Below, piece after piece: positions 25,294-58,253 of a DNA stretch of 58,253 nucleotides. Below the pieces are notes generated by a model. The model was not told the DNA's origin. It was given only the letters and a program-made list of their open reading frames with translations, and made no database searches. The stretch's first letter is position 1. Each line of letters begins with the position of its first letter. Origin of the DNA: a virus (lineage: Duplodnaviria > Caudoviricetes); the IMG/VR virus record IMGVR_UViG_3300037510_000086, positions 1 to 58,253 of that record. The stretch is one strand, 5' to 3'. The position numbers were made by a program, and so were the translations under genes.

Positions 25294-25324
25294 TCGCAAG
25301 AAAAACATCTGCTTAGATGAGACC
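25294..25324 (+). promoter_or_regulatory. 31-bp conserved element, copy 1 (putative phage-RNAP promoter)
   Basis: tcgcaagaaaaacatctgcttagatgagacc. Confidence 0.8.
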
Positions 25325-25342
25325 CTACGAAAGGAACACCAG

Positions 25343-25645
25343 ATGTACCGCTTCGAAAAGATCTTCAAGACCGACCCCTCCAAGCTGGAGGAGGAGCTCG
25401 CCGCCGTACTCGACTCGATGTCGAAGATGGATGACAAGACCAGCGAGGACTACGCCAAGCTCAACGACCAGTACAAGCAGCTGCATGCGCTGAAGGAAGC
25501 CGAAGTTTCCCACAAGCGCATCAGCCGCGATCAGATCGTTGCCGCCGCCGTACACCTCGCCGGGATCGTCGCCGTCATCAACTACGAGAAGATCCACGTG
25601 ATCTCCACCTCCGCCAAGACGATGGTCCTGAAGACTTTCAGGTAG
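25343..25645 (+). CDS. Small cassette protein with C-terminal hydrophobic segment
   Basis: AAAGGA RBS after element 1; ATG 25343. Confidence 0.8.
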   Translation: MYRFEKIFKTDPSKLEEELAAVLDSMSKMDDKTSEDYAKLNDQYKQLHALKEAEVSHKRISRDQIVAAAVHLAGIVAVINYEKIHVISTSAKTMVLKTFR

Positions 25646-25676
25646 ACATCCACCCTCCGACGTAAGTCAAAATGGG

Positions 25677-25720
25677 AAGCCATGTGAGAGCTAACACCTC
25701 TTACATGGCTTTTCGTTTTT
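25677..25720 (+). terminator. Intrinsic terminator
   Basis: aagccatgtgagag-ctaacac-ctcttacatggcttt followed by a T-rich tract. Confidence 0.8.
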
Positions 25721-25733
25721 TGCCTTTTGGTGG

Positions 25734-25764
25734 TCGCAGGGATTACACGCCTTTAAATGAGACC
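25734..25764 (+). promoter_or_regulatory. 31-bp element, copy 2
   Basis: tcgcagggattacacgcctttaaatgagacc. Confidence 0.8.
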
Positions 25765-25784
25765 CCTGCGAAAGGAACACCATC

Positions 25785-26009
25785 ATGTTCGTTATCGTGC
25801 CCAAGAACGACCCGCTCACCATCGTCGTGAAGGGTGACCGTTGGGACGCTCTCGGAACCCCTGGTTCCATCTATCACCAGAAGCTCTACAATCTGCTGGT
25901 GAGGATGGGCGGGATCAACGAGAGTGTCACAGACGGCACCTACCACTTCAACGTCGAGCGCGGACGCTTCTTCGTGGTTCGTGCGAAGCTGACCAAGGTA
26001 GAAAACTGA
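25785..26009 (+). CDS. Small cassette protein
   Basis: AAAGGA RBS; 74 aa. Confidence 0.8.
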   Translation: MFVIVPKNDPLTIVVKGDRWDALGTPGSIYHQKLYNLLVRMGGINESVTDGTYHFNVERGRFFVVRAKLTKVEN

Positions 26010-26019
26010 CCAGACCTCT

Positions 26020-26049
26020 AGCCCAAGCCCCTACATGGGGTTAGGGTTT
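26020..26049 (+). terminator. CCCC-TACAT-GGGG family terminator
   Basis: agcccaagcccctacatggggttagggttt. Confidence 0.7.
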
Positions 26050-26063
26050 AACTCTTTCGAAGG

Positions 26064-26094
26064 TCGCACGAAAAACAGCTGGTTTAGTGAGACC
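26064..26094 (+). promoter_or_regulatory. 31-bp element, copy 3
   Basis: tcgcacgaaaaacagctggtttagtgagacc. Confidence 0.8.
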
Positions 26095-26116
26095 TCTACG
26101 AAAGGAACTGACCGCA

Positions 26117-26380
26117 ATGCTCAAAGCGCTTGTTCGTTCACTGACGTTCTACGCTTTCTCAACCATCAACCTTATGTACGCCTACCGCGTCCTGAAGCGC
26201 GAAGTGACGAAGCTTGCCGAGACCGACAAGGCCGAGAACAAGTTCCACTACGTCGCCATCAGGCTCGCGCGCGGTGACTACAACGAGTTGAATGCGGAAG
26301 CGCTCGAACGTATGCGATACGACTTCAAGTTCAACGACATCGCCGCCCAGTATCACGCAGACGCCTACAAGAAGGACTGA
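26117..26380 (+). CDS. Small cassette protein with N-terminal hydrophobic segment
   Basis: AAAGGA RBS; ATG 26117. Confidence 0.8.
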   Translation: MLKALVRSLTFYAFSTINLMYAYRVLKREVTKLAETDKAENKFHYVAIRLARGDYNELNAEALERMRYDFKFNDIAAQYHADAYKKD

Positions 26381-26390
26381 CAGCAGTCAG

Positions 26391-26423
26391 AAGACCTAGG
26401 GCCCTACACGGGCTTTAGGTTTT
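26391..26423 (+). terminator. Terminator hairpin
   Basis: aagacctagggccc-tacac-gggctttaggtttt. Confidence 0.75.
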
Positions 26424-26428
26424 GCCTT

Positions 26429-26459
26429 TCGCGTAGAATACATGGGTTTAAATGAGACC
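26429..26459 (+). promoter_or_regulatory. 31-bp element, copy 4
   Basis: tcgcgtagaatacatgggtttaaatgagacc. Confidence 0.8.
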
Positions 26460-26480
26460 ACTACGAAAGGACCCTCAGCC

Positions 26481-26735
26481 ATGAAGGACTACGACCCCCG
26501 CGACCCGTTCGACCGGCTCATGGCAGCTACTGAGTTCACCCAGAACACCAAAGACTTCAACGAAAAGATGGACGCAATCCGGAAGCAGCAGGCGAAAGCC
26601 CGCGCTGAGGAGGACGCCCGCTTCGAACGAAGGATGCTGGTGCGAAAGGTTGTGAGGCTCGGTCTGCTGACCACTGCCGCCGTTCTGGCCACCAAGGCCA
26701 TCCGGAATGCTCAGAAGGAACCCGAAGAAAGCTGA
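26481..26735 (+). CDS. Small cassette protein (coiled coil plus C-terminal hydrophobic helix)
   Basis: AAAGGA RBS; ATG 26481; followed by hairpin tgaatccc/gggattca at 26749-26770. Confidence 0.8.
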   Translation: MKDYDPRDPFDRLMAATEFTQNTKDFNEKMDAIRKQQAKARAEEDARFERRMLVRKVVRLGLLTTAAVLATKAIRNAQKEPEES

Positions 26736-26780
26736 CCTCAACAGCCTCTGAATCCCCCACAAGGGATTCATGCTTTGTCT

Positions 26781-26811
26781 TCGCATGGATTACACGGGTT
26801 AATATGAGACC
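26781..26811 (+). promoter_or_regulatory. 31-bp element, copy 5
   Basis: tcgcatggattacacgggttaatatgagacc. Confidence 0.8.
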
Positions 26812-26831
26812 CCTACTAGATTGGACCCGCC

Positions 26832-27074
26832 ATGTTGAACCGATTCGCGATTCAGACCCGGCTCGTCAAGAACCCCAAGAAGAAGACTGTCTCCGAGAAT
26901 GACACCATGGCAGAAGCCGTTGGCGAATCCTCCGCACGACTCGTGAACGAGTTGGCGAAGGACTTCGTCAAGTACGCTGCCGGTGCCATCATCGGAGTGA
27001 TCGTCATCTCCACGGCCACTGACACGCTGAGGCAGATCGCCGTCAAGAAGACCAAGAGCGCCGACAACGAGTAA
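26832..27074 (+). CDS. Small cassette membrane protein
   Basis: YAAGAIIGVIVISTA segment; followed by hairpin cccc-gcaa-ggggttagggtt at 27082-27111. Confidence 0.8.
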   Translation: MLNRFAIQTRLVKNPKKKTVSENDTMAEAVGESSARLVNELAKDFVKYAAGAIIGVIVISTATDTLRQIAVKKTKSADNE

Positions 27075-27136
27075 CCACCTCAACCCCCGACCCCGCAAGG
27101 GGTTAGGGTTTAGCGTTCAAAATGGGAAGTGATTCT

Positions 27137-27253
27137 GTGAAAGCGCTACCGTACTATCTCGTGATCCTGGGGTTTCTCTCTTTGGTAGTCGGTGAATTCG
27201 CCTGGGCACTTTCCTTCTTCATAATAGCTTTCGCAACACGAGAGGGTTCGTAA
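27137..27253 (+). CDS. 38-aa hydrophobic peptide (below ORF-track cutoff)
   Basis: GTG start; KALPYYLVILGFLSLVVGEFAWALSFFIIAF; stop overlaps next ATG. Confidence 0.55.
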   Translation: MKALPYYLVILGFLSLVVGEFAWALSFFIIAFATREGS

Positions 27254-27384
27254 TGGAAAGAAGCAAGACTTGGTTCGTGGCGATGTGTTTCATCGTCGTC
27301 GGAATCGTTCTGCTTGTGAACGGCTGGTTCTTCACCGGGGCGATGCTCCTCCTTCTGGGGTGCGTGTTGAAGCTGGCTGACTGA
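27253..27384 (+). CDS. 43-aa two-helix membrane peptide
   Basis: MERSKTWFVAMCFIVVGIVLLVNGWFFTGAMLLLLG; GAGGG RBS. Confidence 0.6.
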   Translation: MERSKTWFVAMCFIVVGIVLLVNGWFFTGAMLLLLGCVLKLAD

Positions 27385-27389
27385 GAAGG

Positions 27390-27420
27390 TCGCACGAAAA
27401 ACACGCGTTAATATGAGACC
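27390..27420 (+). promoter_or_regulatory. 31-bp element, copy 6
   Basis: tcgcacgaaaaacacgcgttaatatgagacc. Confidence 0.8.
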
Positions 27421-27440
27421 TCTATCGATTGGACATCACC

Positions 27441-27638
27441 ATGCTCAAGAAGAACTCCACCCCCGAAAACACCATCCTCGACGATGACGCTCGCCGTGCT
27501 CACGCACAGAAGCAGCTCTTCCGCTCGGTCGCAACCGCCGTTGCGATCAAGGTAGGCGTGACTGTCGCTGTTGCCATCGCAGCGAAGGCCATCGTCAGGA
27601 AGCTGGAAGCGGGAACGGAAGACTCCTCCGAGAACTGA
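27441..27638 (+). CDS. Small cassette membrane protein
   Basis: VATAVAIKVGVTVAVAIAAKAIV; ATG 27441. Confidence 0.8.
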   Translation: MLKKNSTPENTILDDDARRAHAQKQLFRSVATAVAIKVGVTVAVAIAAKAIVRKLEAGTEDSSEN

Positions 27639-27656
27639 CATCCACCGCAACATCTC

Positions 27657-27688
27657 AGACCCTACCCCTACATGGGGTTAGGGTTTTT
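27657..27688 (+). terminator. CCCC-TACAT-GGGG family terminator
   Basis: agaccctacccctacatggggttagggttttt. Confidence 0.8.
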
Positions 27689-27706
27689 CTTTTGGCTGGA
27701 GGTGTG

Positions 27707-27925
27707 ATGTTCGGCCGACCCAAGGAATACCACTTCGTTCTTACTATCGAGGCTTCTACGCAGGACGGAGTGACGCACCAATTTCAGCGGAACAATGTGA
27801 TGAAGTGGTCGTCGACTGAATATTGTGCCTTGATGCATCTCACAACCGAGTTGGCATCTAGACATAATCTTCGGCCCGAATCCATAATCATCTTGTTCTG
27901 GTCGTTCAAGAAAAACAAACCCTGA
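27707..27925 (+). CDS. Hypothetical protein
   Basis: GGAGG RBS before ATG 27707. Confidence 0.6.
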   Translation: MFGRPKEYHFVLTIEASTQDGVTHQFQRNNVMKWSSTEYCALMHLTTELASRHNLRPESIIILFWSFKKNKP

Positions 27926-27967
27926 AATTTCCCGCGGGGAATTTTCCAGAAAACTTTTGGAGGAATC

Positions 27968-28096
27968 ATGCGCAGCGACGTCAAGACCCTTCTGTTCTTC
28001 ATCTTCCTCATCGTTGGATCGTATTTGATCCTCACGGGCTCGTTCATCATCGGGCTGATCTTGATCATGCTGGCGGTGGTCATACCGGCGGTCTAA
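27968..28096 (+). CDS. 42-aa two-helix membrane peptide (resembles 27253..27384)
   Basis: GGAGG RBS; MRSDVKTLLFFIFLIVGSYLILTGSFIIGLILIMLAVVIPAV. Confidence 0.65.
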   Translation: MRSDVKTLLFFIFLIVGSYLILTGSFIIGLILIMLAVVIPAV

Positions 28097-28110
28097 TCCA
28101 GCCACAGGGG

Positions 28111-28141
28111 TCGCACGAAAAACATGTCTTAGTATGAGACC
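28111..28141 (+). promoter_or_regulatory. 31-bp element, copy 7
   Basis: tcgcacgaaaaacatgtcttagtatgagacc. Confidence 0.8.
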
Positions 28142-28164
28142 CCTACTATGGATTGGAACCCACC

Positions 28165-28428
28165 ATGTCCGAGAAGACCGCCTCTACCCCCGAGACCACC
28201 AAGCCCTCCAAGCTCTCCGTCAAACTGAACAGCCTCAAGCCGTCCAACATCGACAACGAGAAGAAGGAAGCCGCCGTCCGACGCATCAAGTTCGCAACCG
28301 CGTACACCCTTGCGTTCGTCGCCGGAGCCCTGACCACCGTTGCCGTGATGAACGCCAAGAACCTTCACGACGCCGAGACCGAGGAGACCGCTGAGGTCGA
28401 GGAGACCGAGGAGACCACCGAAGACTGA
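28165..28428 (+). CDS. Small cassette membrane protein with acidic tail
   Basis: FATAYTLAFVAGALTTVAV; E/T-rich C-terminus. Confidence 0.8.
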   Translation: MSEKTASTPETTKPSKLSVKLNSLKPSNIDNEKKEAAVRRIKFATAYTLAFVAGALTTVAVMNAKNLHDAETEETAEVEETEETTED

Positions 28429-28449
28429 TATTCCACCAAACCGGTATCA

Positions 28450-28479
28450 GGCCCTGACCCCTACATGGGGTTAGGGTTT
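28450..28479 (+). terminator. CCCC-TACAT-GGGG family terminator
   Basis: ggccctgacccctacatggggttagggttt. Confidence 0.75.
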
Positions 28480-28509
28480 CGCTTTTCGGATCGAGAGATG
28501 GAGTTTTCC

Positions 28510-29140
28510 ATGTCCAAGGAAATCGAGAAGAGCAACAAGAAGCGCACGGTTCTGGTCACGCTGGGGACCCTCGCGGCCCTCGTCGGGCTGATCAAATTCA
28601 TCATCCGGATCGCCAACGGCGAAGACACTCGCTGGGAGAACTGATCGTGGCCGAGGGCGACGAAAAGATCATCACCATCCGCTTCAAGAAGCCGGAATTC
28701 TGGGACAAGATCAAGGAGCAATGGGACGAGAACCCCATGCTCGTGATCGCGGTGGGTACAGCTGCCCTCACCGCCACGGGCAAGCTCATCGATGCTGTCG
28801 CCAGCATTCCGAGCAAGCGCGCGTACGCCAAGCGCATGAACAAGCGGGGGGACGAGAAGTGAGTGCGAAGATCATCACCCAGGAGGGGACTCCGGTGGAT
28901 GGTTGTCCGGAAGAGAACGAAGAGCCCACGTTGGCGGAAGATCTCCGAGCCCTCGCCGAGGACGTCAACGAGGGTCTGGTGGGCTTCCGCAAGTTCCGCA
29001 ACAGCGCGATCCTCAAGATCGGTATCGTCGCCGTGGCCATCAAGGTGGTCGGAGTGGTCGGTCAGATCATCATCGAGAACCAGCGTTTGAAGGCGGCTCG
29101 CCAGGAACGCCAGGAAGAGCGCGACCAGAACGAAGCGTAA
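28510..29140 (+). CDS. Three small single-TM proteins (28510..28644, 28647..28862, 28859..29140)
   Basis: Closely spaced or overlapping ORFs, each with one hydrophobic segment. Confidence 0.65.
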
Positions 29141-29152
29141 TCATCGCCCAGC

Positions 29153-29186
29153 GGGGCCCATATTCACGATGGATGTGGGCCCCTTT
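29153..29186 (+). terminator. Hairpin / terminator upstream of the TerD gene
   Basis: ggggcccatattc-acgat-ggatgtgggcccc followed by ttt. Confidence 0.65.
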
Positions 29187-29218
29187 CGCTGCAACACTTC
29201 ACAGACAAGGAATTCAAA

Positions 29219-29890
29219 ATGGGTATCACCTTCCGCAAGGGTGTCGACTCTCCGCTCGACGGCGTGAACCGACTGATGTTCGGCGCGGGCTGGGACCGCA
29301 AGACCAAGAAGCAGTCCGGCTGGGCCCGCAAGCTGGCCGTGAAGACCGGCGGGAAGATCAACGTTGGTGGTGGCGAGAAGGACATCGACCTGGACCTCGC
29401 GCTGATCCTGTACCGCGACGGCGAGCCGAAGCGCATCGTCATCGGCCACAACATGGACCCCGTCAACGGCGCGGCAGTGCACTCCGGTGACAACCAGACC
29501 GGCGAGGGCGACGGCGACGACGAGACGATCACGTTGGACCTGCTCCGCCTGCCCGCCTGGGCGACCGAGTGGGCCGTCGCGGTCTTCGCCTACAAGATGG
29601 GTACCAACTTCGACCAGGCCCAGAACGTCTCGCTCAACGTCTACGACGCCAGCGGCTCCGGGGAGCCCGTGCTTTTCGACGAGCTGATGCCTACCCTCGG
29701 CTCCGGCGCGACGGCTTGCGTCATCGCCAGCGGCAAGCGCAACCGCAACGTGTCGGGAGACCCGATCGACGGCTGGACCACCACGCTGGTCGACAAGTCC
29801 GGCAAGCTCGCCATGCAGGGCGACGACAACGCGATACTGGCGTTCGCTCGTAGTAACGCGGGAATCCGCCGTCCCGGCTCCGTCCTCTGA
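29219..29890 (+). CDS. TerD-family stress protein
   Basis: GAGWD, DIDLDLAL, VHSGDNQTGEGDGDDETITLDL, NFDQ TerD signature. Confidence 0.88.
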   Translation: MGITFRKGVDSPLDGVNRLMFGAGWDRKTKKQSGWARKLAVKTGGKINVGGGEKDIDLDLALILYRDGEPKRIVIGHNMDPVNGAAVHSGDNQTGEGDGDDETITLDLLRLPAWATEWAVAVFAYKMGTNFDQAQNVSLNVYDASGSGEPVLFDELMPTLGSGATACVIASGKRNRNVSGDPIDGWTTTLVDKSGKLAMQGDDNAILAFARSNAGIRRPGSVL

Positions 29891-30003
29891 CGCCATGGTT
29901 CCCCGTCCAGACAACGGGTGTACCTGCGACGGGGGACCGTACACCCACGGTCCAAAGGGCAGAGACGAGGTTCTCGCCCAGCTCAAAATGAGAAGAGAAA
30001 AAG

Positions 30004-30198
30004 ATGAGCCTCGCCCTCCAGTTCGCCAGACCGGTCGAACCGGAACCCGACATATCTGAGCTGATGGTCTACGACCCCGAGCGTCAGATGAACGTCTTCA
30101 AGGACGGCAGCGGCTTGGTCATCGACGACCCGGACACGCTGATCAAGTTTGGCACGACCACCTCGACTGCCGGGTCCAAGACCCACTTCGATGACTGA
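30004..30198 (+). CDS. ATP-grasp-modified RiPP (graspetide) precursor-like peptide
   Basis: Leader ALQFARP...YDPERQMNV...DG and Thr/Ser/Asp core GTTTSTAGSKTHFDD match actinobacterial ATP-grasp target peptides (recalled family). Confidence 0.75.
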   Translation: MSLALQFARPVEPEPDISELMVYDPERQMNVFKDGSGLVIDDPDTLIKFGTTTSTAGSKTHFDD

Positions 30199-30207
30199 GG
30201 AGCCATC

Positions 30208-30294
30208 ATGAACTTCTTCGGACACATGCTCTCCGGCCTCGTCGGAGGAATGGTGGCCTTACTGATCGAGCACTACGTCAATCACAAGCGGTAG
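30208..30294 (+). CDS. 28-aa hydrophobic peptide
   Basis: GAGGAG RBS; MNFFGHMLSGLVGGMVALLIEHYVNHKR. Confidence 0.55.
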   Translation: MNFFGHMLSGLVGGMVALLIEHYVNHKR

Positions 30295-30295
30295 A

Positions 30296-30326
30296 TCGCA
30301 CCAAAAACACGCACTTAGATGAGACC
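30296..30326 (+). promoter_or_regulatory. 31-bp element, copy 8 (followed by a hairpin, no ORF)
   Basis: tcgcaccaaaaacacgcacttagatgagacc. Confidence 0.8.
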
Positions 30327-30367
30327 CATATTCCGTGAACACCACACGGGGTATGGGTTTACCTTTT
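30324..30367 (+). ncRNA. Candidate ~45-nt hairpin RNA or immediate terminator
   Basis: acccatattccgtg-aacacca-cacggggtatgggt (14 bp, 2 G-U pairs) followed by ttacctttt. Confidence 0.5.
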
Positions 30368-30387
30368 AACCAACAAGGAGAAGCACA

Positions 30388-30975
30388 ATGAGCAACAGCA
30401 CGCGCCCCAGTCTCGCCGGACCCGTCATCGCCCTGTGCTTCGCCCTTGTGGCGGTCGCCTTGGCCTCCATCAGCGGATGCGGGACTTCTCTCGCGGTCGA
30501 CAGCAAGCCCAGGACCGTCTCACTCATTGGCGAGTGGCGGCAGATCAACCCCAACTCGGGCGGATGGATGACGGCGTCCATATCCGGTGAGTCCGTCCAG
30601 GTGAACCTGAGAGGGCGTGGCTCCAGTTCCGTGTACTGGATGGGTACGTTCGACACCCACCCGCGGAAGTCCAACAAGTTCAAGGTCGTCTCGATCGGCG
30701 ACCCCGACGCCGCGAAGTCGATGATCACCGCCGACGAGTCCAAGACGAAGACGTTCACATACGACCACGGCGTTCTCTCGTTCAAGTTCTCGGCGCTGGG
30801 GACCTCGGCCACCATCCACATGACCAAGGCGAAGTCGACGCATATTCCGACCGCCACCCCCACGACTCACCGGCCCTCGTACAAGACTCCCCAGACCAAC
30901 AAGAAGCCGACCACCAAGGCCAAGGCGAGGACCGGGGTCAAGGCGCCCGCCAAGATCTCGACCCGCAAGAAGTAG
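30388..30975 (+). CDS. Probable lipoprotein
   Basis: AAGGAG RBS; signal peptide ending LASISG-C; K/T/P-rich tail. Confidence 0.7.
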   Translation: MSNSTRPSLAGPVIALCFALVAVALASISGCGTSLAVDSKPRTVSLIGEWRQINPNSGGWMTASISGESVQVNLRGRGSSSVYWMGTFDTHPRKSNKFKVVSIGDPDAAKSMITADESKTKTFTYDHGVLSFKFSALGTSATIHMTKAKSTHIPTATPTTHRPSYKTPQTNKKPTTKAKARTGVKAPAKISTRKK

Positions 30976-30982
30976 GTACACC

Positions 30983-31777
30983 ATGAAGTTCAAGCTGGGA
31001 ATACTGGCCAAGCAGGCGAAGAAGGCCATCGCTGACAACTCCCCCGCGCTTCTGACTGCGCTCGGTGTGACCGGTACGCTTACGGTCGCATATCTGACGG
31101 GCAAGGCTTCGTTCAAGGCGGCGGAGATCCTCGCCAAGGAAGCCAAGCAGCGCCGCAAGGACGGCGACCCGGAGATGGACAACTGGGACAAGGCCGATCT
31201 GGTCTGGCGTGAGTTCATCCCCGCCGCCGGTATCGCCGCCCTGACCGTCTCTGCCATCATCGGCGCAAACCACATCAGCACGAAGCGCGTCGCTGCCTTC
31301 GCCTCGGCATATTCCATGGCCGAGAAGGGGTTTTCCCAGTACAAGGAAAAGGTGCTGGAGAAGGTCGGCCCGAAGAAGGAAGCGGAGATCAAGGACGAGG
31401 TCGCCAAGCAGCAGATCAGCGACCACCAGTACTCCAAGTCACCGATCATCATCACCGGACACGGAGACCACCTCTGCTTCGACGCATATTCGGGGCGGTA
31501 CTTCCAGAGCGACATCGAGCGCGTTCGCTCGGCGGTCAACGATATCCGGGACCAGATCCACAGTCAGGATTCCGCGACCCTGTCCGACTACTGGGGGCTT
31601 ATCGGTCTGGAGTCCACCCAGGTGTCCGACGACATCGGGTGGACCACGGATCAGAAGCTCGACGTTCACTACACGTCGGACCTCACCAAGGAAGGTGTGC
31701 CGTGCTTGATCGTCACCTTCCTCTCAACGCCGAAGCCGCTCTGCGGTCCCATCGGCTCGACCTACAGCGCGTATTGA
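30983..31777 (+). CDS. Membrane protein (DUF6353-like), paralog of 36487..37431
   Basis: NSPALLTALGVTG...KA N-terminus; ATLSDYWGLIG...IGW C-terminal domain. Confidence 0.7.
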   Translation: MKFKLGILAKQAKKAIADNSPALLTALGVTGTLTVAYLTGKASFKAAEILAKEAKQRRKDGDPEMDNWDKADLVWREFIPAAGIAALTVSAIIGANHISTKRVAAFASAYSMAEKGFSQYKEKVLEKVGPKKEAEIKDEVAKQQISDHQYSKSPIIITGHGDHLCFDAYSGRYFQSDIERVRSAVNDIRDQIHSQDSATLSDYWGLIGLESTQVSDDIGWTTDQKLDVHYTSDLTKEGVPCLIVTFLSTPKPLCGPIGSTYSAY

Positions 31778-31979
31778 AGAGCTGCGTTCCACTACGGGAC
31801 GCTTGATCTTGAGGACGCATTCGGGAGCTGAGTTCATGCAGGACGCCTGTACTGACTCGTCGGGCAAGCCCGATTGCCTATGGCGAGTCTCATGCAACAT
31901 CACAAGGGCGTCCTGCCCGAAAATGGACGCCCTTCTTCAAAAGCTCGATACCGATATTTCACGAGAGGCAGAACACATC

Positions 31980-32360
31980 ATGTCGAACCCCAAGAACACC
32001 GCCGCCACCCCGAAGACCGTCAAGGAGACCGTCGAAGCGAAGTCCGGCGAGGAAGCCGTCATCCCCGCGCAGACCACCGAGGTCAAGCCCGGCTTCGCCG
32101 ACGGCATCAAGGTCGAGGACCCCAAGGACGCCCAGTCCGAGGAGAAGACCACCCTGGTGAAGCGCGCCAAGGCCGCCGCCGAGAAGCTCAAGTCCAACAA
32201 GAAGGCCATGTTCTTCCTCGCGGGCGCTGCGGTCGTCATCGGCCTGACCATCAAGAACAACCGCAAGGCCGTCAAGGTCGAGGTCGTGGACCCGGAGGAC
32301 ACCTCTGTCGAGGGTGTCGACGACGTCACCGGCCCGGACGAGACCGACGACTCTCTCTGA
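31980..32360 (+). CDS. Single-TM protein
   Basis: GAGAGG upstream of ATG 31980; AMFFLAGAAVVIGLTI. Confidence 0.7.
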   Translation: MSNPKNTAATPKTVKETVEAKSGEEAVIPAQTTEVKPGFADGIKVEDPKDAQSEEKTTLVKRAKAAAEKLKSNKKAMFFLAGAAVVIGLTIKNNRKAVKVEVVDPEDTSVEGVDDVTGPDETDDSL

Positions 32361-32400
32361 GTCACACACCAACCTGAAGCGCGCGAGAAAGAAGTAAGAA

Positions 32401-32934
32401 GTGGCGATATCCGAGACCATCACGTACCAGGACATCGACGGGAAGACGGTCACCAAGGAGTGGTGGTTCTCCCTCGACAAGGCCGAGCTCGCCGAGATGA
32501 AGCTCCGTCATGAGGGTCCTGGTAAGGGCACTCTGGAGGAGTACCTCGACCGGATCATCAAGGAGGACGACAACAACAAGATTCTGGACAACTTCCAGAT
32601 GATCCTCCAGAAGTCCGTCGCAGTCCGGGTGGACAACTACCTCAAGAAGACCCCCGAGACCGTCATGGAGTTCACAGGCGGCGGGGCCTACGAGGCCATG
32701 TTCATGAAGATGCTGCGCGAAGCCGAGTACGCGGCCAAGCTCATCAACGGCATCCTCCCGAAGGACATGGTTGAGGCGGTCGCCAAGAAGGACGCCGAGA
32801 AGTCCCAGCACACCGACGAGGAGCTTCTCGCCATGAGCGATGAGGAGTTCTTCTCAGTGGCCGGTGGCCAGAACCCCATGCGTTGGGACCCGCGTTTCCT
32901 GACGCTGGCGGCTCGGCGCAAGACCGCGGCATGA
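32401..32934 (+). CDS. Conserved hypothetical phage protein
   Basis: ETITYQDIDG...WFSLDKAEL; phage-like codon usage. Confidence 0.75.
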   Translation: MAISETITYQDIDGKTVTKEWWFSLDKAELAEMKLRHEGPGKGTLEEYLDRIIKEDDNNKILDNFQMILQKSVAVRVDNYLKKTPETVMEFTGGGAYEAMFMKMLREAEYAAKLINGILPKDMVEAVAKKDAEKSQHTDEELLAMSDEEFFSVAGGQNPMRWDPRFLTLAARRKTAA

Positions 32935-33053
32935 TCGACCCGGAGAAGATGTTCGACGAGATGAAGAAGTTCGGCGTTCTGATGATCATCGGACCCGCCC
33001 TCATTCTCGTCGGATATCTTCTTACCTGGGGAGTGAAACTCCTCATCAAGTGA
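32931..33053 (+). CDS. 40-aa membrane peptide
   Basis: ATGA overlap; FGVLMIIGPALILVGYLLTWGV. Confidence 0.6.
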   Translation: MIDPEKMFDEMKKFGVLMIIGPALILVGYLLTWGVKLLIK

Positions 33054-33230
33054 ATGATTGGGGGATCAGCATTGGGTTCTGCCTATAGGGAACAATCCCT
33101 TCGTAGGGGTCTCCAGGGCCGTCCGGATGCTAGATCTTAAACGACAACCGCAGCTCGCAGGCCGCTCCTTCCGTAGCGAGGACAAGGAAACTGCGCCCCA
33201 GTCATATCCCCTTCGAGTAATTGGAGAACC

Positions 33231-33710
33231 GTGAACAGCAAAGGCAAGATAGCCGTCGTCTTCGCACTGATGTTCGGCACGCTCGCAGTAGCCGTACCTC
33301 AGGCGGAGGCGACCCCATCTCTGCGCATCGCCGCCATGGGAAGCGCCAACACTCAGAAGGGTGCCCGCTATGTCTGGGGCGCCGAGGGTGGTTATTCCAA
33401 GGGTTACGACTGCTCGGGCCTGACTTACTGGTCCTACAAGCAACACGGTAAGACCCTGCCCCGCACCGCTCAGGGCCAGTACAACAGCGCGAAGAAGATC
33501 GCCCCGCACGACCGCAAGCCGGGTGACCTCGTGTTCATACATGACGCTCGGGGTTATGTATTCCACGTGGGCATCCTGACGCGGATCACCAGCGGACACG
33601 GTTGGATGGTCAACGCCAACTCCGGTTCCTACCGTGGGCGCAAGGTCGTCGAGGCGCCAGTCTACGAGTACACCCCCGGCTCGCCGTATGCCACTTACGG
33701 GCGGTACTGA
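33231..33710 (+). CDS. Secreted NlpC/P60 peptidoglycan endopeptidase
   Basis: Signal peptide ending AEA; YVWGA, YDCSGLT, LPRTA, PGDLVF, HVGI. Confidence 0.9.
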   Translation: MNSKGKIAVVFALMFGTLAVAVPQAEATPSLRIAAMGSANTQKGARYVWGAEGGYSKGYDCSGLTYWSYKQHGKTLPRTAQGQYNSAKKIAPHDRKPGDLVFIHDARGYVFHVGILTRITSGHGWMVNANSGSYRGRKVVEAPVYEYTPGSPYATYGRY

Positions 33711-33711
33711 C

Positions 33712-34265
33712 ATGGAAGACCGTACGTACCAGTCGCACACCGACGACCACGGCGAGCATATTCTCGTGTTCGACGGGGATGGCGTCTTCGTTCGTAAGGT
33801 CTTCGTCCCGCGCTCCGAGTTTCGTCCAACCGCCTTCGTATGGATCTTGGACGACCGATTCCGCACGCTCTTCCAGGCGAATTCCCACATCGCCTACAGG
33901 TGGTTGGAGGAGAACCCGGACCGAGTGCTGGCCAAGCAAGTCGGCGTAGGTAAGGACTTCCAGATCCTCTCGGTTTCCGAGTTCCAGGAGTTGTACGGAT
34001 GAAATCGATATGGGGGTCTGAACTAATGACCCTGCCCGACGAACTCGGATCGATCAAAGTCGGTTCGGAGTGGTGCTGGGAGCCCCTGAAATTGGAAAGC
34101 AGATGCTACATCAGAGTGAGTATGGTCGAGCGTAAGCTTGACGGTAACTGGTGGGTTCTCTGCACAGCTCTTACCGATGGCGGCGGGGTCAAGAGGGGTC
34201 AGTCCAACTGGAACCAGCTTTCTCGATTCGTCGAGGCTTCCGTTCTAATCAAACCCGGTTCCTGA
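33712..34265 (+). CDS. Two hypothetical proteins (33712..34002, 33999..34265)
   Basis: Coupled ORFs with ATGA overlap. Confidence 0.65.
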
Positions 34266-34281
34266 ACGGAGTCAGTAGGGG

Positions 34282-34312
34282 TCGCGTCAAAAACACGTGT
34301 TTAGATGAGACC
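34282..34312 (+). promoter_or_regulatory. 31-bp element, copy 9
   Basis: tcgcgtcaaaaacacgtgtttagatgagacc. Confidence 0.8.
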
Positions 34313-34336
34313 CCTACTGGATTGGACCCTACTCCT

Positions 34337-34483
34337 GTGAACAACACTCGCAAGAAGGATATCATCAAATTCTTTGTCGCTGGAGCTTTCGCCCTCGCCC
34401 TCGCGAAGGTTGAGAAGCTCATCGACAAGAAGGCCGATGAATACTTCCCTGACGAAGATTCCGATCAGGAAAAGAACGACTGA
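34337..34483 (+). CDS. 48-aa cassette membrane peptide
   Basis: GTG 34337; IIKFFVAGAFALALA; followed by CCCCTACATGGGG terminator at 34500-34527. Confidence 0.7.
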   Translation: MNNTRKKDIIKFFVAGAFALALAKVEKLIDKKADEYFPDEDSDQEKND

Positions 34484-34547
34484 CCCCTAACCTGTCTCCA
34501 CCCAACCCCTACATGGGGTTTGGGTTTAATTTTCTGATCGAGGTGTT

Positions 34548-54470: not shown

Positions 54471-55047
54471 CGATCACGCCAAGCTCGAAGGCTCACACGC
54501 CTTTCTGAGCCCCTCGAATTACCACTGGCTCCGCTACGACCGGGAGAAGCTCCTCCAGCGTCTGGAGACCTCCAAGGCCGCTGCACGAGGCACTAGCCTC
54601 CACAAGCTAGCCGCCCATGCGATCTCTGAAGGTGTTCAGCTCATGCCTGACGGGTCAACACTCAGTCAGTACGTGAATGACGCCATCAAACATAGGATGG
54701 AGCCCGAAAGGACTCTGTTCTTCTCGATGGACTGCTACGGCACTGCGGACGCCATTGGGTTCGAGGTCTACGATCAGCCAGTCGGTGATGTGCTCGGCTA
54801 CCTTCGCATCTTCGATCTGAAGACCGGTGTGTCTCCGTGCTCTGTCGAGCAGCTGTACATCTACGCCGCTGTCTTCTGTCTCGAATATGAGTACATGCCC
54901 TACGAGATCGAAGGCGAGCTCCGTCTCTACCAGAACAACGACGTTCAGTGCTACAAGATTGAACTCGTTACTCTGGCTGAGATCATGAGCACCATCATGT
55001 CTCATCAGAGCATCATCGACGAGTACCGCCTGGGGGGTGGCGAATGA
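54439..55047 (+). CDS. PD-(D/E)XK Cas4/RecB-like exonuclease
   Basis: HAFLSPS, RGTSLH, GTADAI, IFDLKTG, QLYIYA. Confidence 0.8.
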   Translation: MRSVKLFKAYNDHAKLEGSHAFLSPSNYHWLRYDREKLLQRLETSKAAARGTSLHKLAAHAISEGVQLMPDGSTLSQYVNDAIKHRMEPERTLFFSMDCYGTADAIGFEVYDQPVGDVLGYLRIFDLKTGVSPCSVEQLYIYAAVFCLEYEYMPYEIEGELRLYQNNDVQCYKIELVTLAEIMSTIMSHQSIIDEYRLGGGE

Positions 55048-57812
55048 CGATCATCGAGGAAGACGACTACCTCGCTCACTACGGCATCCTTCGGAAGTCG
55101 GGGCGCTATCCGTGGGGTTCCGGCAAGGACGAGACCACACGAGCGCAGACGTTCCTCACTATGGTCGCTGACTGCCGCAAGAAGGGGCTGACGGACAAGG
55201 AGATCGCTCAGGGTTTCGGTATGACAACTACCGAACTCCGTGCGACCACCACCCTGGCAAACAATGCCAACTCGCGAGCCAAGATCGCTCAGGCCGAGAG
55301 GCTGAAGAAAAAGGGATGGTCGAATATGGCCATCGGCAGAGAGATGGGTATCGGAGAGTCTTCTGTCCGTGCCCTTCTTGAGCCTGGCCGTAAGGAGCGC
55401 AACGACATCCTGACAGCCACCGCTCAGATGCTTCGCGATGAGGTGGCCAAGAGCACATACATCGACGTCGGCAAGGGCGTTGAGCTCCACCGAGGTATCA
55501 GCGCTGAGAAGCTGAATGCTGCCGTCTCCGTTCTGAAGACCGAAGGATACGTCGTCCATAAGGTGCCCGTGCGACAGCTGGGTACTGGTAAGGACACGAA
55601 GGTCAAGGTTCTCTGTCCGCCCGGAACCACTTTCGGCGACGTCATGAAGAACCGTTCGGAGATCAAGCAGATCGTCCCGTACTCGACCGACCGCGGCCTC
55701 TCGTTCAACGACATCAAGCCGCCCATCTCGATTGACTCCAAGCGGGTCAAAGTTCGGTACGCCGATGAAGGCGGAACGCTTCGGGATGGTGTCATTCAGG
55801 TTCGCCCTGGTGTGAAGGACACATCTCTTGGTAACGCGACCTATGCTCAGGTTCGCGTCGCCGTCGACGGTAGTCACTACCTCAAGGGTATGGCTATGCG
55901 TGGGGACCCTAAGGACTTCCCGCCTGGCGTGGACCTGATCTTCAACACGAACAAGTCCAATACTGGTAACAAGCTCGACGCCATGAAGCCCATGGGTAAG
56001 GACCCAAAAGATCCGTTTGGCGCTACGATCGACCACCAGATCCAGGACACCGACTCTTTCGGGCGCAAGCATGTCACTTCGGTGATGAACATCGTCAATG
56101 CTGAAGGCCGATGGGATGAGTGGAACAGAACCCTCTCGTCTCAGATGCTTTCCAAGCAAAGTCAGGTTCTCGCCGCAAAGCAGCTCGGTCTCGTTCGTGA
56201 ACGAAAGCAGCGCGAGCTCGACGACATTATGTCGGTCACCAATCCTACCCTCAGGGAACACCTCCTCGAAAAATATGCAGAATCGACAGATGCCGCAGCT
56301 GTGCATCTGAAGGCTGCTGCTATGCCGAGGCAGGCAACCAAGGTAATTCTTCCCCTGACGAAGATCAGCGAGAATGAGGTTTACGCACCCACCTTCAAGA
56401 ACGGTGAGCGTGTAGTTCTCGTTCGTTTCCCTCATGGCGGAACGTTCGAGATCCCCGAACTCGTGGTCAACAACAGGGTGCCTGAGGGTAAGTCTGTCAT
56501 CGGGCCCAATGCTCGTGACGCTATCGGCATCCACCCCAAGGTCGCGGAGCGACTGTCCGGTGCGGACTTCGATGGCGACACTGTGTTGGTGATCCCGAAC
56601 AATGAGGGCCGGATCAAGAACAGCCCGCCTCTTGAGGGTCTTAAGGACTTCGACCCTAAGGTGTACAAGCTGCCTGAAGGTGCTCCTGTCATCAGTGCCC
56701 GTACCAAGGGTATTGAGATGGGTAAGGTGTCGAACCTCATCACCGACATGACCATTGGTGGTGCGCCGTTCCCTGAGATCGAGCGTGCTGTCAGACATTC
56801 CATGGTCGTGATCGATGCTGAGAAACACAAGCTCGACTACAAGCAGTCAGCCATCGACAACGGAATCTCGGCCCTCACAAAGAAGTACCAACGAAAGGGT
56901 GGTGGTGCATCCACTGTCATCTCCAACTCCGGGTCCAACGCCAAGATCGAAGTCCCTGAGCGCAAGCTCCGATCTGCCAAGGATGGCGGTCCTATCGACC
57001 GTGCTACTGGCAAGCTTGTCTATGTGCCTACGGGCAGGAAGACATCTGAGACCAAGATCGTTGACCCTGAAACGGGAAAGACAAAGTGGGTCGCTTCATA
57101 CAGGGTTCGCCCTGACACTCAGGTTGTGAAGCGTGATGGAGAACCTGTCACACGTGAAGCTCCTGTAATGGAGAAGGTGGCAAAGCTTGCGTCTACTGAC
57201 GATGCTCGCACCTTCATGTCGAAGAACCCGACACCCATCGAGAAGATCTATGCAGATCACTCGAACGCATTGAAGAGCATGGCCAACGAAGCACGAAAGG
57301 CCACGCTTGACATCAAGCCCATCGAACGCTCCCCTTCTGCGGCCCAGACCTACGCCAACGAAGTCAAGCGTCTCGATGCGGCGTTGAACCTGGCTCTCAT
57401 GAACGCCCCCCTCGAAAGGCAGGCCCAGATCATTGGGAATGCCATCTACCGCCAGAAGCTCCACGACAATCCGAACATGGATGAGGGAGACAAGAAGAAG
57501 GCGTCTTCGAAGGCTCTTGAGGAAGCTCGAATCAGGACCGGTGCGAACAAGCACAGGATCAAGATCTCTCCTCGTGAGTGGGAGGCAATCCAAGCAGGAG
57601 CCATCAGTCCTAGCAAACTGAAGGACATCCTGGACAACACCGATACAGACAAGCTCAAGGAACTGGCCATGCCTCGTGAGGCAGTGGTCCATGACCCGGC
57701 CATGCGGGCTCGTGGTGCTGACCTCATCCGACGTGGGTACACGCAGGCTGAGGTAGCCGATCACCTTGGGATCTCGGTGTCCACTCTAGTGTCCATGCTG
57801 AGTGGGAAGTGA
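55044..57812 (+). CDS. Putative single-chain two-barrel RNA polymerase with HTH domains and an N-terminal LAHYG tag
   Basis: LVRFPH, AIGIHP, RLSGADFDGD (DFDGD at 56565-56579); HTH-like segments GLTDKEIAQGFG, GWSNMAIGREMG, GYTQAEVADHLG. Confidence 0.75.
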   Translation: MTIIEEDDYLAHYGILRKSGRYPWGSGKDETTRAQTFLTMVADCRKKGLTDKEIAQGFGMTTTELRATTTLANNANSRAKIAQAERLKKKGWSNMAIGREMGIGESSVRALLEPGRKERNDILTATAQMLRDEVAKSTYIDVGKGVELHRGISAEKLNAAVSVLKTEGYVVHKVPVRQLGTGKDTKVKVLCPPGTTFGDVMKNRSEIKQIVPYSTDRGLSFNDIKPPISIDSKRVKVRYADEGGTLRDGVIQVRPGVKDTSLGNATYAQVRVAVDGSHYLKGMAMRGDPKDFPPGVDLIFNTNKSNTGNKLDAMKPMGKDPKDPFGATIDHQIQDTDSFGRKHVTSVMNIVNAEGRWDEWNRTLSSQMLSKQSQVLAAKQLGLVRERKQRELDDIMSVTNPTLREHLLEKYAESTDAAAVHLKAAAMPRQATKVILPLTKISENEVYAPTFKNGERVVLVRFPHGGTFEIPELVVNNRVPEGKSVIGPNARDAIGIHPKVAERLSGADFDGDTVLVIPNNEGRIKNSPPLEGLKDFDPKVYKLPEGAPVISARTKGIEMGKVSNLITDMTIGGAPFPEIERAVRHSMVVIDAEKHKLDYKQSAIDNGISALTKKYQRKGGGASTVISNSGSNAKIEVPERKLRSAKDGGPIDRATGKLVYVPTGRKTSETKIVDPETGKTKWVASYRVRPDTQVVKRDGEPVTREAPVMEKVAKLASTDDARTFMSKNPTPIEKIYADHSNALKSMANEARKATLDIKPIERSPSAAQTYANEVKRLDAALNLALMNAPLERQAQIIGNAIYRQKLHDNPNMDEGDKKKASSKALEEARIRTGANKHRIKISPREWEAIQAGAISPSKLKDILDNTDTDKLKELAMPREAVVHDPAMRARGADLIRRGYTQAEVADHLGISVSTLVSMLSGK

Positions 57813-58075: not shown

Positions 58076-58215
58076 TTCTAGGTGTCGCACCAAGCTGGCC
58101 AGAGGTCGGTTGGAGTTCTCCGTGCGGGCCGCGTCCCCCTCGCGATCCCGGAAAATTCTGACCGACCTCTGGCCTTCCAGCTTCCGATACATGGCTTCCC
58201 AATTTTTGTCAGACC

Positions 58216-58247
58216 GGGGGGAGGGGTCCGCAAAAATGACCCCCCTC
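58216..58247. other. Terminal G/C inverted repeat, probably cos-adjacent
   Basis: ggggggaggggtc-cgcaaaaat-gacccccctc near the right end. Confidence 0.45.
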
Positions 58248-58253
58248 TAGCAT

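Follow-up and report, generated by a model that had tools for sequence, protein, structure and literature searches.

An element of about 31 bp, repeated nine times in the DNA of a Bingvirus-like (cluster BI) Streptomyces siphophage, has a promoter-like architecture, and on this architecture we give even chances to the view that the nine copies are promoters for the RNA polymerase (RNAP) encoded by the phage itself. The phage comes from soil and has a lytic-type genome; the whole stretch analysed, 58,253 nucleotides long, is hereafter called the window.

A sequence-only reading had proposed the pattern TCGCR-N3-AWWACA-N5-T-N4-TGAGACC. An IUPAC pattern search of the window returns exactly nine matches, all on the + strand, without indels and starting where this reading had placed them (25294, 25734, 26064, 26429, 26781, 27390, 28111, 30296 and 34282). 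The nine elements are confirmed as real, non-random repeats. No match appears in 100 dinucleotide-preserving shuffles of the window, and tolerating up to three mismatches reveals no site beyond the nine (9 found vs 0.11 expected). In a scan of both strands with a position weight matrix (PWM) the elements score 31.9–39.2 bits and everything else remains below 12 bits, with no intermediate scores. The general layout is a CGCR box, 6–7 bp, a WACA box, exactly 5 bp, an A/T-rich hexamer and a purine run (GAGA), i.e. a contiguous signal whose core is A/T-rich and asymmetric. The first five copies are in tandem at the claimed spacing of ~330–440 bp (start-to-start distances of 440, 330, 365 and 352 bp), while the structural arm of the window (1–25 kb) contains no copy.

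Eight of the nine elements head the unit that had been described, i.e. a leader, an ORF of 48–100 aa and a hairpin terminator. The leaders are CTAC followed by a GAAAGGA-type or a GATTGGA-type sequence, the start codons lie 25–31 nt past the hexamer, and the terminators have stems of 10–22 bp and T-rich tails; they are a repeat family themselves (family D5, seven copies). On the + strand, promoter-like element 1 (25294..25324, hexamer TTAGAT, pattern match, 32.7 bits) is followed by an ORF of 100 aa (25343..25645; PHROG 5818, function not assigned), 65% identical to its homologue in phage ClubPenguin, and by a hairpin with a stem of about 20–22 bp and a T tract (25671..25717). Elements 2 to 9, all on the same strand, were each detected by pattern and PWM. 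Element 2 (25734..25764, TTAAAT) precedes a 74-aa ORF (25785..26009) and a family D5 terminator (26020..26056); element 3 (26064..26094, TTTAGT) an 87-aa ORF (26117..26380) and a terminator found by the family D5 search and the hairpin scan (26391..26423); element 4 (26429..26459, TTAAAT) an 84-aa ORF with a C-terminal hydrophobic helix (26481..26735) and a terminator (26749..26770). The next three ORFs, all with one TM-like segment, are of 80 aa (26832..27074, PHROG 6618) after element 5 (26781..26811, TAATAT), 65 aa (27441..27638, PHROG 15974) after element 6 (27390..27420, TAATAT) and 87 aa (28165..28428) after element 7 (28111..28141, TAGTAT), with terminators at 27082..27110, 27657..27686 and 28448..28479 respectively. 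Element 9 (34282..34312, TTAGAT) heads a 48-aa ORF with a GTG start (34337..34483, PHROG 21468) and a terminator (34500..34525), downstream of which a long block of replication genes begins at 34548.

The idea of strictly one-ORF cassettes nevertheless needs qualification, because units 5, 6 and 7 bear extra promoter-less small ORFs past their terminators. Two such ORFs, both encoding 43-aa membrane proteins, follow terminator 5 (27122–27253 and 27253–27384, + strand), and promoter-less genes extend from terminator 7 to 30198, including one for a TerD-domain protein (29219–29890). Element 8 (30296..30326, TTAGAT) has no ORF of its own: its 3' end directly abuts a hairpin with a 13-bp stem (30325..30357, + strand), an "empty cassette" that is a candidate short RNA or attenuator. 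A lipoprotein/DUF6353 gene block (30388–34265) lies downstream; the ClubPenguin counterpart of element 8 and its hairpin stands ahead of a 63-aa gene.

Every copy of the element in the window comes after a good terminator, so the downstream genes need re-initiation. This speaks against roles other than that of a promoter, either at the RNA level on read-through transcripts (e.g. in processing or in enhancing translation) or in replication or packaging, through protein binding. The fixed distance to the start codons would suit such roles, as would the inverted arms of up to 10–11 bp that bracket some BI copies and could pair in read-through RNA. However, only 21 of the 38 BI copies have arms of at least 3 bp, phages outside BI have none, and the excess over a partner-shuffled control is slight (3.5 vs 3.04). 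Moreover, a search of Rfam gave no match, and the conserved core, A/T-rich and asymmetric, is melting-region-like. We thus consider a non-promoter function very unlikely.

Comparison with ClubPenguin bears on the suggestion that the cassettes are gained, lost or shuffled. The cassette content of the two genomes does differ, by a one-cassette indel and an ORF replacement. Homology breaks at 25771/25772, at the end of a leader, and resumes at 26020, at the start of a terminator; the cassette 2 ORF lies between these points and an unrelated ORF takes its place in ClubPenguin. It breaks again at 26463, at a promoter end, and resumes at 26755, ClubPenguin lacking the entire cassette 4; a single ClubPenguin promoter aligns to both flanks of this extra cassette. 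Farther on it resumes at 34274, at the start of promoter 9. The junctions of the cassette-sized replacements and of the indel are thus at promoter and terminator edges, from which we infer that the cassettes are units of exchange through ordinary homologous recombination, a moron-like modular exchange. Lambdoid morons are likewise autonomous promoter-gene-terminator units, gained and lost among genomes that are collinear in other respects, but each is a lone insertion with an unrelated promoter of host type, often active in the prophage, whereas this lytic-type genome has nine units sharing one promoter and one terminator family.

The same junctions, together with the tandem, same-orientation arrangement, could suggest an integron without an integrase, with site-specific recombination at the conserved flanks and excision of cassettes as circles. 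The exchange at conserved flanks holds, but the integron mechanics do not fit: every cassette comes with a promoter and a terminator, while integron cassettes are promoter-less and carry attC sites, of which no likeness was found in the array. In addition, unequal homologous crossover yields such a junction pattern, with a single promoter matching both sides of an extra unit, and the annotations of 50 kb of Bing, 50 kb of DrGrey (both about 56 kb long) and a 14-kb stretch of ClubPenguin list no integrase or recombinase. This mechanism appears to us hardly credible.

The protein encoded at 55044..57812 (+ strand, 922 aa), candidate reader of the elements, is an RNAP, as had been claimed; it is of the single-chain two-barrel QDE-1/YonO type with fused helix-turn-helix (HTH) domains. 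It matches PHROG 4291 at E=0 and carries the catalytic loop GADFDGD at residues 506–512, with S505–D512 invariant in 42 of 42 aligned homologues. The best PDB folds for its AlphaFold model (pLDDT 81.9) are QDE-1 (E=1.5e-7), RDR2 and P74-26 gp62 (E=1.8e-5), the last of which we take to be the counterpart of P23-45 gp64 in the sister phage. Two HTH motifs are N-terminal, a feature of all eight polymerases compared, and one is C-terminal (HTH_23, residues 886–915, E=1.2e-9). The gene is followed by a conserved 85-aa ORF (57818..58075, + strand; PHROG 4303, function not assigned). To our knowledge, the HTH/RdRP-like protein is the only conserved phage DNA-binding protein that might read the conserved non-sigma boxes. 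This is because it is the signature gene common to the whole phage group, as described by Koert et al. (10.1101/842583).

The element is present with the same fixed spacing in all nine RNAP-bearing genomes examined, from six host genera and two phyla. It is unchanged even where the polymerases are only 38–58% identical and the surrounding DNA is otherwise unalignable. Copies number 8 in ClubPenguin, 10 in Bing, 11 in DrGrey, 7 in Arthrobacter phage Mudcat, 8 in Gordonia phage Rickmore, 8 in Microbacterium phage Camille, 10 in Lactococcus phage P078 (TTTACA, 5 bp, TATAAT, purine, without the CGCR box) and 12–13 in Faecalibacterium phage FP_oengus (CGCGA...NCA, 5 bp, CTTTAT, purine). All 10 Bing copies lie in annotated intergenic gaps directly upstream of a gene. 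Of 80 uncultivated polymerase loci, 20 have copies in the 10 kb upstream, the polymerase strand bearing 46 of the 48 matches. These distributions support the view that the element has been passed on together with this polymerase in the nine genomes; an element inherited with the polymerase is inherited with the entire lineage too, so that this is no independent evidence of a functional link.

The claim that the element is no sigma70 -35/-10 pair holds in the window: a sigma-70 scan calls none of the nine copies, none has a -35 element, and the -35-like WACA box is 5 bp from the hexamer instead of the canonical 16–18 bp. Disparities nevertheless appear between hexamers. TANNNT fits 3 of 9 window copies, the other six lacking A at position 2, and none of 12 FP_oengus copies in any nearby register, but it fits 61 of 83 copies overall, including every copy in DrGrey, Mudcat, Rickmore, Camille and P078. 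TATAAT itself is found in all copies of P078 and Mudcat and in 7 of 8 in Rickmore; DrGrey and Camille also have other TANNNT hexamers. In most relatives the hexamer is thus a textbook sigma-A -10, which counts against reading by the phage enzyme. The proposal of promoters for the phage RNAP consequently stands in part: the RNAP is real, the sigma-70 pair is absent and the two are co-inherited, but TATAAT in relatives fits the host polymerase as well.

Two explanations make use of this fit. According to the first, the copies are plain, strong early promoters read by the host holoenzyme alone, the boxes being recent duplications or operators on which a phage repressor shuts off early genes. The perfect -10 of many relatives and the position directly ahead of putative early small genes agree with this, all the more as a -10 alone is often enough for actinobacterial sigma-A promoters. 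However, boxes and exact spacing persist over six host genera and two phyla in otherwise unalignable DNA, and recent duplication therefore cannot explain them. Lactococcus promoters without a -35 normally need a TG extension, where P078 copies have CCC, and the window and FP_oengus hexamers violate TANNNT. We regard plain host promoters as unlikely.

According to the second, HrdB (sigma-A) holoenzyme reads the hexamer as a -10 with the help of a phage DNA-binding factor bound between about -31 and -18, on the CGCR box and the WACA box. This factor, which the 55044 protein might itself provide through its HTH domains, would substitute for the -35 contact, and the phage polymerase would transcribe a different class of genes from a single-copy promoter that has escaped recognition. 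Promoters without a -35 that need phage activators are well known from T4 and lactococcal phage middle genes. T4 middle promoters have a good -10 and, near -30, a conserved box but lack a -35, and they require host sigma-70 and two phage factors, MotA and AsiA. The TANNNT hexamers in every copy of five of the nine genomes favour such a reading, as do the terminators, which resemble ordinary intrinsic ones equally suited to the host polymerase and so also speak against the phage RNAP. Against it, no MotA/AsiA-like or sigma-like gene was found among the 20 proteins scanned of the window's roughly 70, and two lineages keep the architecture without a valid -10 (window and FP_oengus). In BI and DJ phages, furthermore, the positions 6–8 nt past the hexamer, where sigma-A would be expected to start, are an invariant C, while all 38 BI copies have GAGA directly past the hexamer. 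We hold this explanation possible but doubtful.

The promoter context of the polymerase gene is a further difficulty for the phage RNAP as reader. A copy of the element stands ahead of the polymerase operon in four lineages (Mudcat, Rickmore, Camille and FP_oengus), an arrangement that comes naturally if the host enzyme is the reader. Ahead of the window's polymerase gene no sigma-70-type promoter was found, and only one between 38 and 58 kb (5.6 expected). Given this context, the RNAP must come with the virion or another reader must act first; virion delivery is conjecture.

Promoters of T7/SP6/N4-type RNAPs are contiguous, asymmetric, sigma-free signals of about 20–30 bp with a purine-rich start, multi-copy and in one orientation. 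The elements share their contiguous and asymmetric character, purines at the putative start, presence in many copies and single orientation; those enzymes, however, are single-subunit RNAPs of the Pol-I-like kind, with no relation to two-barrel enzymes, and N4 early promoters are hairpins. P23-45 is a Thermus siphovirus with single-chain two-barrel RNAPs and arrays of short early units, for which PMC10770324 describes a strongly conserved promoter motif for a two-barrel phage RNAP together with a terminator motif of 26 nt that is likewise conserved. The motif sequences differ from ours. Of its two RNAPs, gp96 (virion) and gp64 (non-virion), the virion enzyme is a fusion with the tape measure protein, whereas the 55044 enzyme is free-standing with HTH domains. 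The P23-45 promoters were mapped by cappable-seq and ChIP, whereas our elements are known from sequence.

YonO of the Bacillus prophage SPbeta is, like the 55044 protein, a single-peptide, two-barrel, RdRP-like DNA-dependent RNAP of a siphophage, encoded just upstream of the structural genes when genome ends are joined (PMC5467207), although no sequence similarity between the two proteins is detectable with the tools used. It transcribes a single late operon, with one start site, from a promoter whose sequence had yet to be defined according to that paper; here, a multi-copy consensus precedes small non-structural genes. That YonO serves late structural genes (PMC5467207), while our structural arm is without the element, argues against the phage RNAP as reader and for an activated host enzyme. 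Microbacterium cluster EC phages have an 18-bp asymmetric intergenic motif 21–30 bp upstream of start codons, with 12 same-orientation copies in short gaps and a phage-encoded transcription factor, as here, but this factor is a sigma factor and sequence and lineage differ (PMC7302621). For cluster EL, relatives of our phage, the accessible part of PMC7302621 reports no motif.

Under the reading that we prefer, the nine elements would be promoters of one lineage-specific class, read directly by the 922-aa polymerase, whose three HTH motifs may provide sequence recognition as sigma does for cellular polymerase. Transcription would start at the purine run (GAGA) and each promoter would yield a short mRNA with a leader of 20–30 nt and one small ORF, mostly for a single-pass membrane protein. 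The conserved hairpin-plus-T terminator would stop this mRNA, probably leakily, and the promoter-less genes downstream would receive transcripts that read through from the last units. Being near-identical repeats, promoters and terminators may also serve as homologous recombination points at which whole cassettes or ORFs are swapped, gained or lost. If true, the element would be the probable, so far uncharacterised promoter of an unusual one-piece RNAP.

The window, about 58 kb long and apparently complete, is the genome of a siphophage recovered from a soil metagenome, with all genes rightward; it is related to the Streptomyces phages of cluster BI/Bingvirus. Among sequencing runs, its DNA occurs in five soil-metagenome DNA runs and in no RNA run. 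The 31-bp element, i.e. a CGCR box, a WACA box, 5 bp, an A/T hexamer and a purine run (GAGA), matches at exactly nine sites, all on the + strand (25294, 25734, 26064, 26429, 26781, 27390, 28111, 30296 and 34282), as the sequence-only reading had proposed. The pattern gave 0 matches in 100 shuffles of the window, and no extra copy occurs in the window at up to 3 mismatches. In a position-weight scan of both strands the nine sites reached 31.9–39.2 bits and nothing else exceeded 12 bits; the matrix started from 60 regex sites, including a spurious one (position 18413 of the Gordonia phage Rickmore) that scored under 12 bits when rescanned. A search of the window for a second repeated motif that might act as a late promoter turned up no further intergenic repeat family. 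Rfam returned only a sub-threshold chance match (mir-56, 25.8 against 80 bits).

Eight of the nine copies share one layout: an upstream terminator hairpin, the element, a leader of the CTAC + GAAAGGA or CTAC + GATTGGA type, one ORF of 48–100 aa and a closing hairpin (10–22 bp stem, T-rich tail). The A/T hexamer lies 25–31 nt ahead of the start codon in eight copies, and the terminators form a repeat family of their own with seven members. Additional small ORFs, lacking a promoter, follow units 5, 6 and 7. The cassette products are mostly small proteins with one hydrophobic helix; neither PHROG nor Pfam assigned a function to them. In a comparison for paralogy, which would point to tandem duplication of whole units, the best pairwise E-values between them are only 0.017–0.019. 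The array (25294–34527) is located between the lysis genes (homologues of the hydrolase and holin genes of the Streptomyces phage ClubPenguin) and the replication genes. The ninth copy differs: at 30296–30357 the element abuts a hairpin with a 13-bp stem, without an ORF, while its ClubPenguin counterpart stands before a 63-aa gene. This stretch could be an emptied cassette, could encode an RNA of about 50 nt, or could act as an attenuator of the block of lipoprotein/DUF6353 genes.

Aligned with its best relative, ClubPenguin (60% of the array region covered at 78.6% identity), the array is collinear, with homology broken cassette by cassette. It stops at 25771, just past leader 2, and returns at 26020, the start of terminator 2, so the replacement in cassette 2 is confined to its ORF. 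A second break comes at 26463, the end of promoter 4, and homology returns at 26755; cassette 4 is absent from ClubPenguin, and a single ClubPenguin promoter aligns to both flanks of the gap. Judged from the alignment, this has the signature of a one-unit indel, which would have arisen by unequal crossover between promoter repeats. Elsewhere a 72-aa ORF is inserted directly after terminator 6, and the segment 33999–34273 is replaced, homology returning at 34274, the start of promoter 9. In the Streptomyces phages Bing and DrGrey the promoters and terminators are kept and only a minority of the cassette ORFs are shared. The units consist of promoter-like element, ORF and terminator and are variably present between collinear relatives, as are autonomous moron-like units; the ORF-less unit at 30296 fits this picture as well.

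The sequence-only reading had suggested that the conserved flanks let cassettes be gained, lost or shuffled, like an integron without an integrase. The comparison with ClubPenguin, Bing and DrGrey upholds the first part, as homologous moron-like exchange, but not the integron mechanics. Every cassette comes with a promoter-like element and a terminator of its own, and neither attC-like sites nor promoter-less cassettes were found. No integrase or recombinase is annotated in 50 kb each of Bing and DrGrey or in 14 kb of ClubPenguin; of the window's own proteins the scans covered 20. Because the cassettes own their promoters, attC-like sites are absent and the relatives' portions have no annotated recombinase, integron mechanics are not indicated.

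The element architecture is present, with lineage-specific variants, in all nine polymerase-bearing genomes, i.e. the window and eight phages (6 host genera). ClubPenguin (8 copies in 14 kb), Bing (10 copies) and DrGrey (11 copies) carry the form of the window. Boxes and spacing are identical in Mudcat (Arthrobacter, 45% GC; 7 copies), Rickmore (Gordonia; 8 copies) and Camille (Microbacterium; 8 copies). In P078 (Lactococcus, 33% GC; 10 copies) the form is TTTACA, 5 bp, TATAAT and a purine run, without the CGCR box, and the element strings are the most repeated 12-mers of the genome. In FP_oengus (Faecalibacterium; 12 copies by regex, 13 by eye) it is CGCGA, an NCA box, 5 bp, CTTTAT and a purine run, in the same register as in the other genomes. 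The actinobacterial and FP_oengus regexes, unlike the P078 pattern, demanded a pair of purines behind the hexamer, which makes the purine counts of those sets partly circular. In the Streptomyces phages the element persists at polymerase identities of only 55–84% and in DNA that cannot otherwise be aligned.

All genomes have their copies oriented with the genes and concentrated in the small-gene region past the structural or lysis module; all ten Bing copies are intergenic. Mudcat, Rickmore, Camille and FP_oengus carry an extra copy some kilobases ahead of the polymerase operon, and none is found there in the phages of the Streptomyces cluster BI. At uncultivated polymerase loci from IMG/VR (80 loci with no more than 10 kb of flanking DNA, which leaves the majority of arrays beyond reach; one locus is Mudcat itself) copies occur at 20 of 80, with 46 of the 48 matches on the polymerase strand. 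None lies downstream of the polymerase in up to 10 kb at these 80 loci. This lineage-wide conservation of the element is new.

The candidate reader is the 922-aa product of the last large gene of the window (55044–57812). Its entire length matches PHROG 4291 (“RNA-dependent RNA polymerase”; E = 0), and it carries a GADFDGD catalytic loop (residues 506–512), within a stretch (S505–D512) invariant in all 42 aligned homologues. A C-terminal HTH_23 domain (E = 1.2e-9), in an HTH region at about residues 843–920, is accompanied by N-terminal HTH motifs at about residues 30–137. The AlphaFold2 model (mean pLDDT 81.9, pTM 0.68) finds as best PDB folds QDE-1 (E = 1.5e-7), plant RDR2 and P74-26 gp62 (E = 1.8e-5); bacterial beta-prime chains match weakly, behind these three. 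A direct sequence search against PDB chains was discarded, giving only chance NRas matches (E 0.078 or worse). Because of the PHROG match, the catalytic loop, the HTH domains and the fold matches, the protein is assigned, on sequence and predicted structure, as a two-barrel RNA polymerase made of a single chain, like QDE-1 and YonO. Two-barrel RdRP-like phage RNA polymerases (YonO, crAss-like gp66, P23-45 gp64/gp96) are a recent discovery.

The family comprises 250 sequenced phage records and 2,134 clusters at 50% identity (E 0.001 or better), and spans phages of Actinobacteria and Firmicutes. In the available part of their text, Koert et al. had already suggested that the HTH-bearing protein might be a polymerase, and had named its gene as the signature of a phage group (10.1101/842583). 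The same portion includes in this group Streptomyces BI, Arthrobacter AM/AU/AW, Gordonia DJ, Rhodococcus CC and Microbacterium EL phages together with Lactococcus and Faecalibacterium phages, thereby crossing two bacterial phyla (10.1101/842583). In P078 (45574–49646) the polymerase gene directly follows the lysin gene; for Camille, PMC7302621 is cited in the same connection.

Which enzyme reads the element? It is a multi-copy, one-orientation intergenic motif at a short fixed distance upstream of genes, as expected for promoters of a phage RNAP. That it does not resemble a sigma70/HrdB −35/−10 pair, already remarked from the sequence alone, agrees with a sigma-70 scan, which called none of the nine copies. 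The scan itself returned background numbers in 20 kb of P078 (102 matches against 100.6 expected).

Reading by the host enzyme alone appears improbable. There is no −35 box at 16–18 bp, the only −35-like box (WACA) being 5 bp from the hexamer, and the hexamer has the form TANNNT in just three of the nine window copies and in none of the 12 FP_oengus copies. Sigma-A enzymes start 6–8 nt after the hexamer; at this distance the bases are invariant C in the BI and DJ phages, and the GAGA directly after the hexamer is invariant too. On the other side, TANNNT is present in 61 of 83 copies overall and in every copy of five of the nine genomes, two of which have TATAAT throughout. Actinobacterial sigma-A promoters frequently consist of a −10 alone, and the terminators of the array are ordinary intrinsic ones.

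The CGCR and WACA boxes weigh further against a plain host promoter: they are conserved across two host phyla although sigma does not read them, so a conserved phage reader is needed. This reader could be a phage factor that acts at the upstream boxes of host sigma-A promoters, a possible but rather unlikely arrangement, to which the points in favor of the host enzyme also apply. Among these is the behavior of YonO, the only studied relative, which serves late genes, while the structural arm of the window has no copy of the element; according to the part of PMC5467207 available, YonO does serve late genes and its promoter is still unknown. In the available part of 10.1101/842583, no conserved DNA-binding protein of the phage group other than the HTH-bearing polymerase is reported. 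A mapped precedent is the Thermus siphovirus P23-45, where, according to the accessible part of PMC10770324, the promoter motifs as well as the terminator motifs of the two-barrel phage polymerases are conserved.

We infer that the element is assigned to the phage rather than to the host enzyme, and give about an even chance to the phage's own two-barrel polymerase reading the elements directly, as its promoters. A fuller version is doubtful: a sigma-less single-polypeptide polymerase would use three built-in HTH modules, one per box of the ~31-bp tripartite promoter, and, carried in the virion, would fire self-terminating pre-early cassettes before any host transcription. When the HTH recognition helices of eight polymerases were set against the boxes, the second N-terminal HTH deviated in P078, which has no CGCR box; that of Bing also deviates, yet Bing retains the box. 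No sigma-70-type promoter was found ahead of the polymerase gene in the window scan (1 against 5.6 expected), so a polymerase acting as sole reader of the element would need to be delivered in the virion or get its start from weak transcription by the host. Dual use is possible, the host enzyme seeding and the phage enzyme amplifying, and would reconcile TATAAT with the non-sigma boxes. Non-promoter roles of the element take the probability that is left.

In BI phages about half of the elements (e.g. window 34271–34323 and 28104–28147) are bracketed by inverted arms, GTAGGGGT...ACCCCTAC. These arms (GGGGT...ACCCC) reach at least 3 bp in 21 of 38 BI copies, the longest being 10–11 bp; their mean length is 3.5 against 3.04 ± 0.14 with shuffled partners, a value reached by 5 of 2000 shuffles. 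They are absent from Rickmore, Mudcat and Camille, and the downstream arm doubles as the 5' half of the terminator consensus. The arms were rejected as a core feature of the element and judged a weak, BI-only by-product of the flank consensus.

Other repeats were observed. A second lineage-wide short repeat, TCAAAATGG(G/A), has six window copies (8574, 12337, 15128, 25668, 27118 and 29215), and in at least four of them an ORF starts with the ATG of the repeat (8578, 25672, 27122 and 29219). The string is among the most repeated 10-mers of FP_oengus (12 copies) and also occurs in the Camille and Mudcat genomes, so it may represent a conserved context for translation starts. FP_oengus has a further repeat, AATGATATTT, in 11 copies, several overlapping start codons. 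Within ORF 873–1904 of the window, a 9-bp periodic repeat (1284–1418; nine overlapping copies of a 45-nt unit) translates into collagen-like Gly-X-Y triplets within a left-arm protein of 343 aa. The 691-aa protein that opens the head-gene block (ORF 8578–10653) contains a 9-bp periodic acidic repeat with GACGAGACC-type units (9047–9140), and the ORF of cassette 7 ends in a similar short repeat (28367–28418). The non-coding genome ends (58076–58253 and 1–106) contain no copy of the promoter element and only a 13-bp inverted repeat (58097–58109 / 58162–58174), which may serve as a terminator or belong to the packaging site.

The non-structural genes also include a TerD-domain protein (29219–29890; Pfam E = 1.8e-15). 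It shares 79% identity with TerD of both Bing and ClubPenguin, and no other part of the array region is conserved in many Streptomyces phages at the DNA level. Two DUF6353 paralogues lie at 30983–31777 and 36487–37431 (E = 2e-71 and 1.5e-64).

We found no description of the element in the literature, literal motif strings included; motif figures may exist in supplements. The available portions of 10.1101/842583 do not mention promoter or terminator, and those of PMC5513430 neither promoter nor motif. The available part of PMC7302621 reports no motif for cluster EL, and those of PMC11536984 and PMC13432834 do not describe the element. The polymerase family had been noted before; its promoter had not. 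As interpreted here, the element would belong with phage-polymerase-specific promoters that have matching terminators, an already known kind.

If it is the host polymerase that reads the elements, they would form a family of activator-type early promoters, still unusual but less of a surprise. With a sharp multi-copy consensus, fixed spacing and conservation alongside the enzyme, sigma-free promoter finding by a one-chain polymerase becomes directly testable. If a virion-borne, self-reading polymerase proves true, the element would be the first defined promoter for YonO/QDE-1-like phage polymerases. Confirmation would also provide an orthogonal compact set of promoter, polymerase and terminator for high-GC Actinobacteria, and would explain how these phages maintain a fast-turnover set of small membrane-protein genes.
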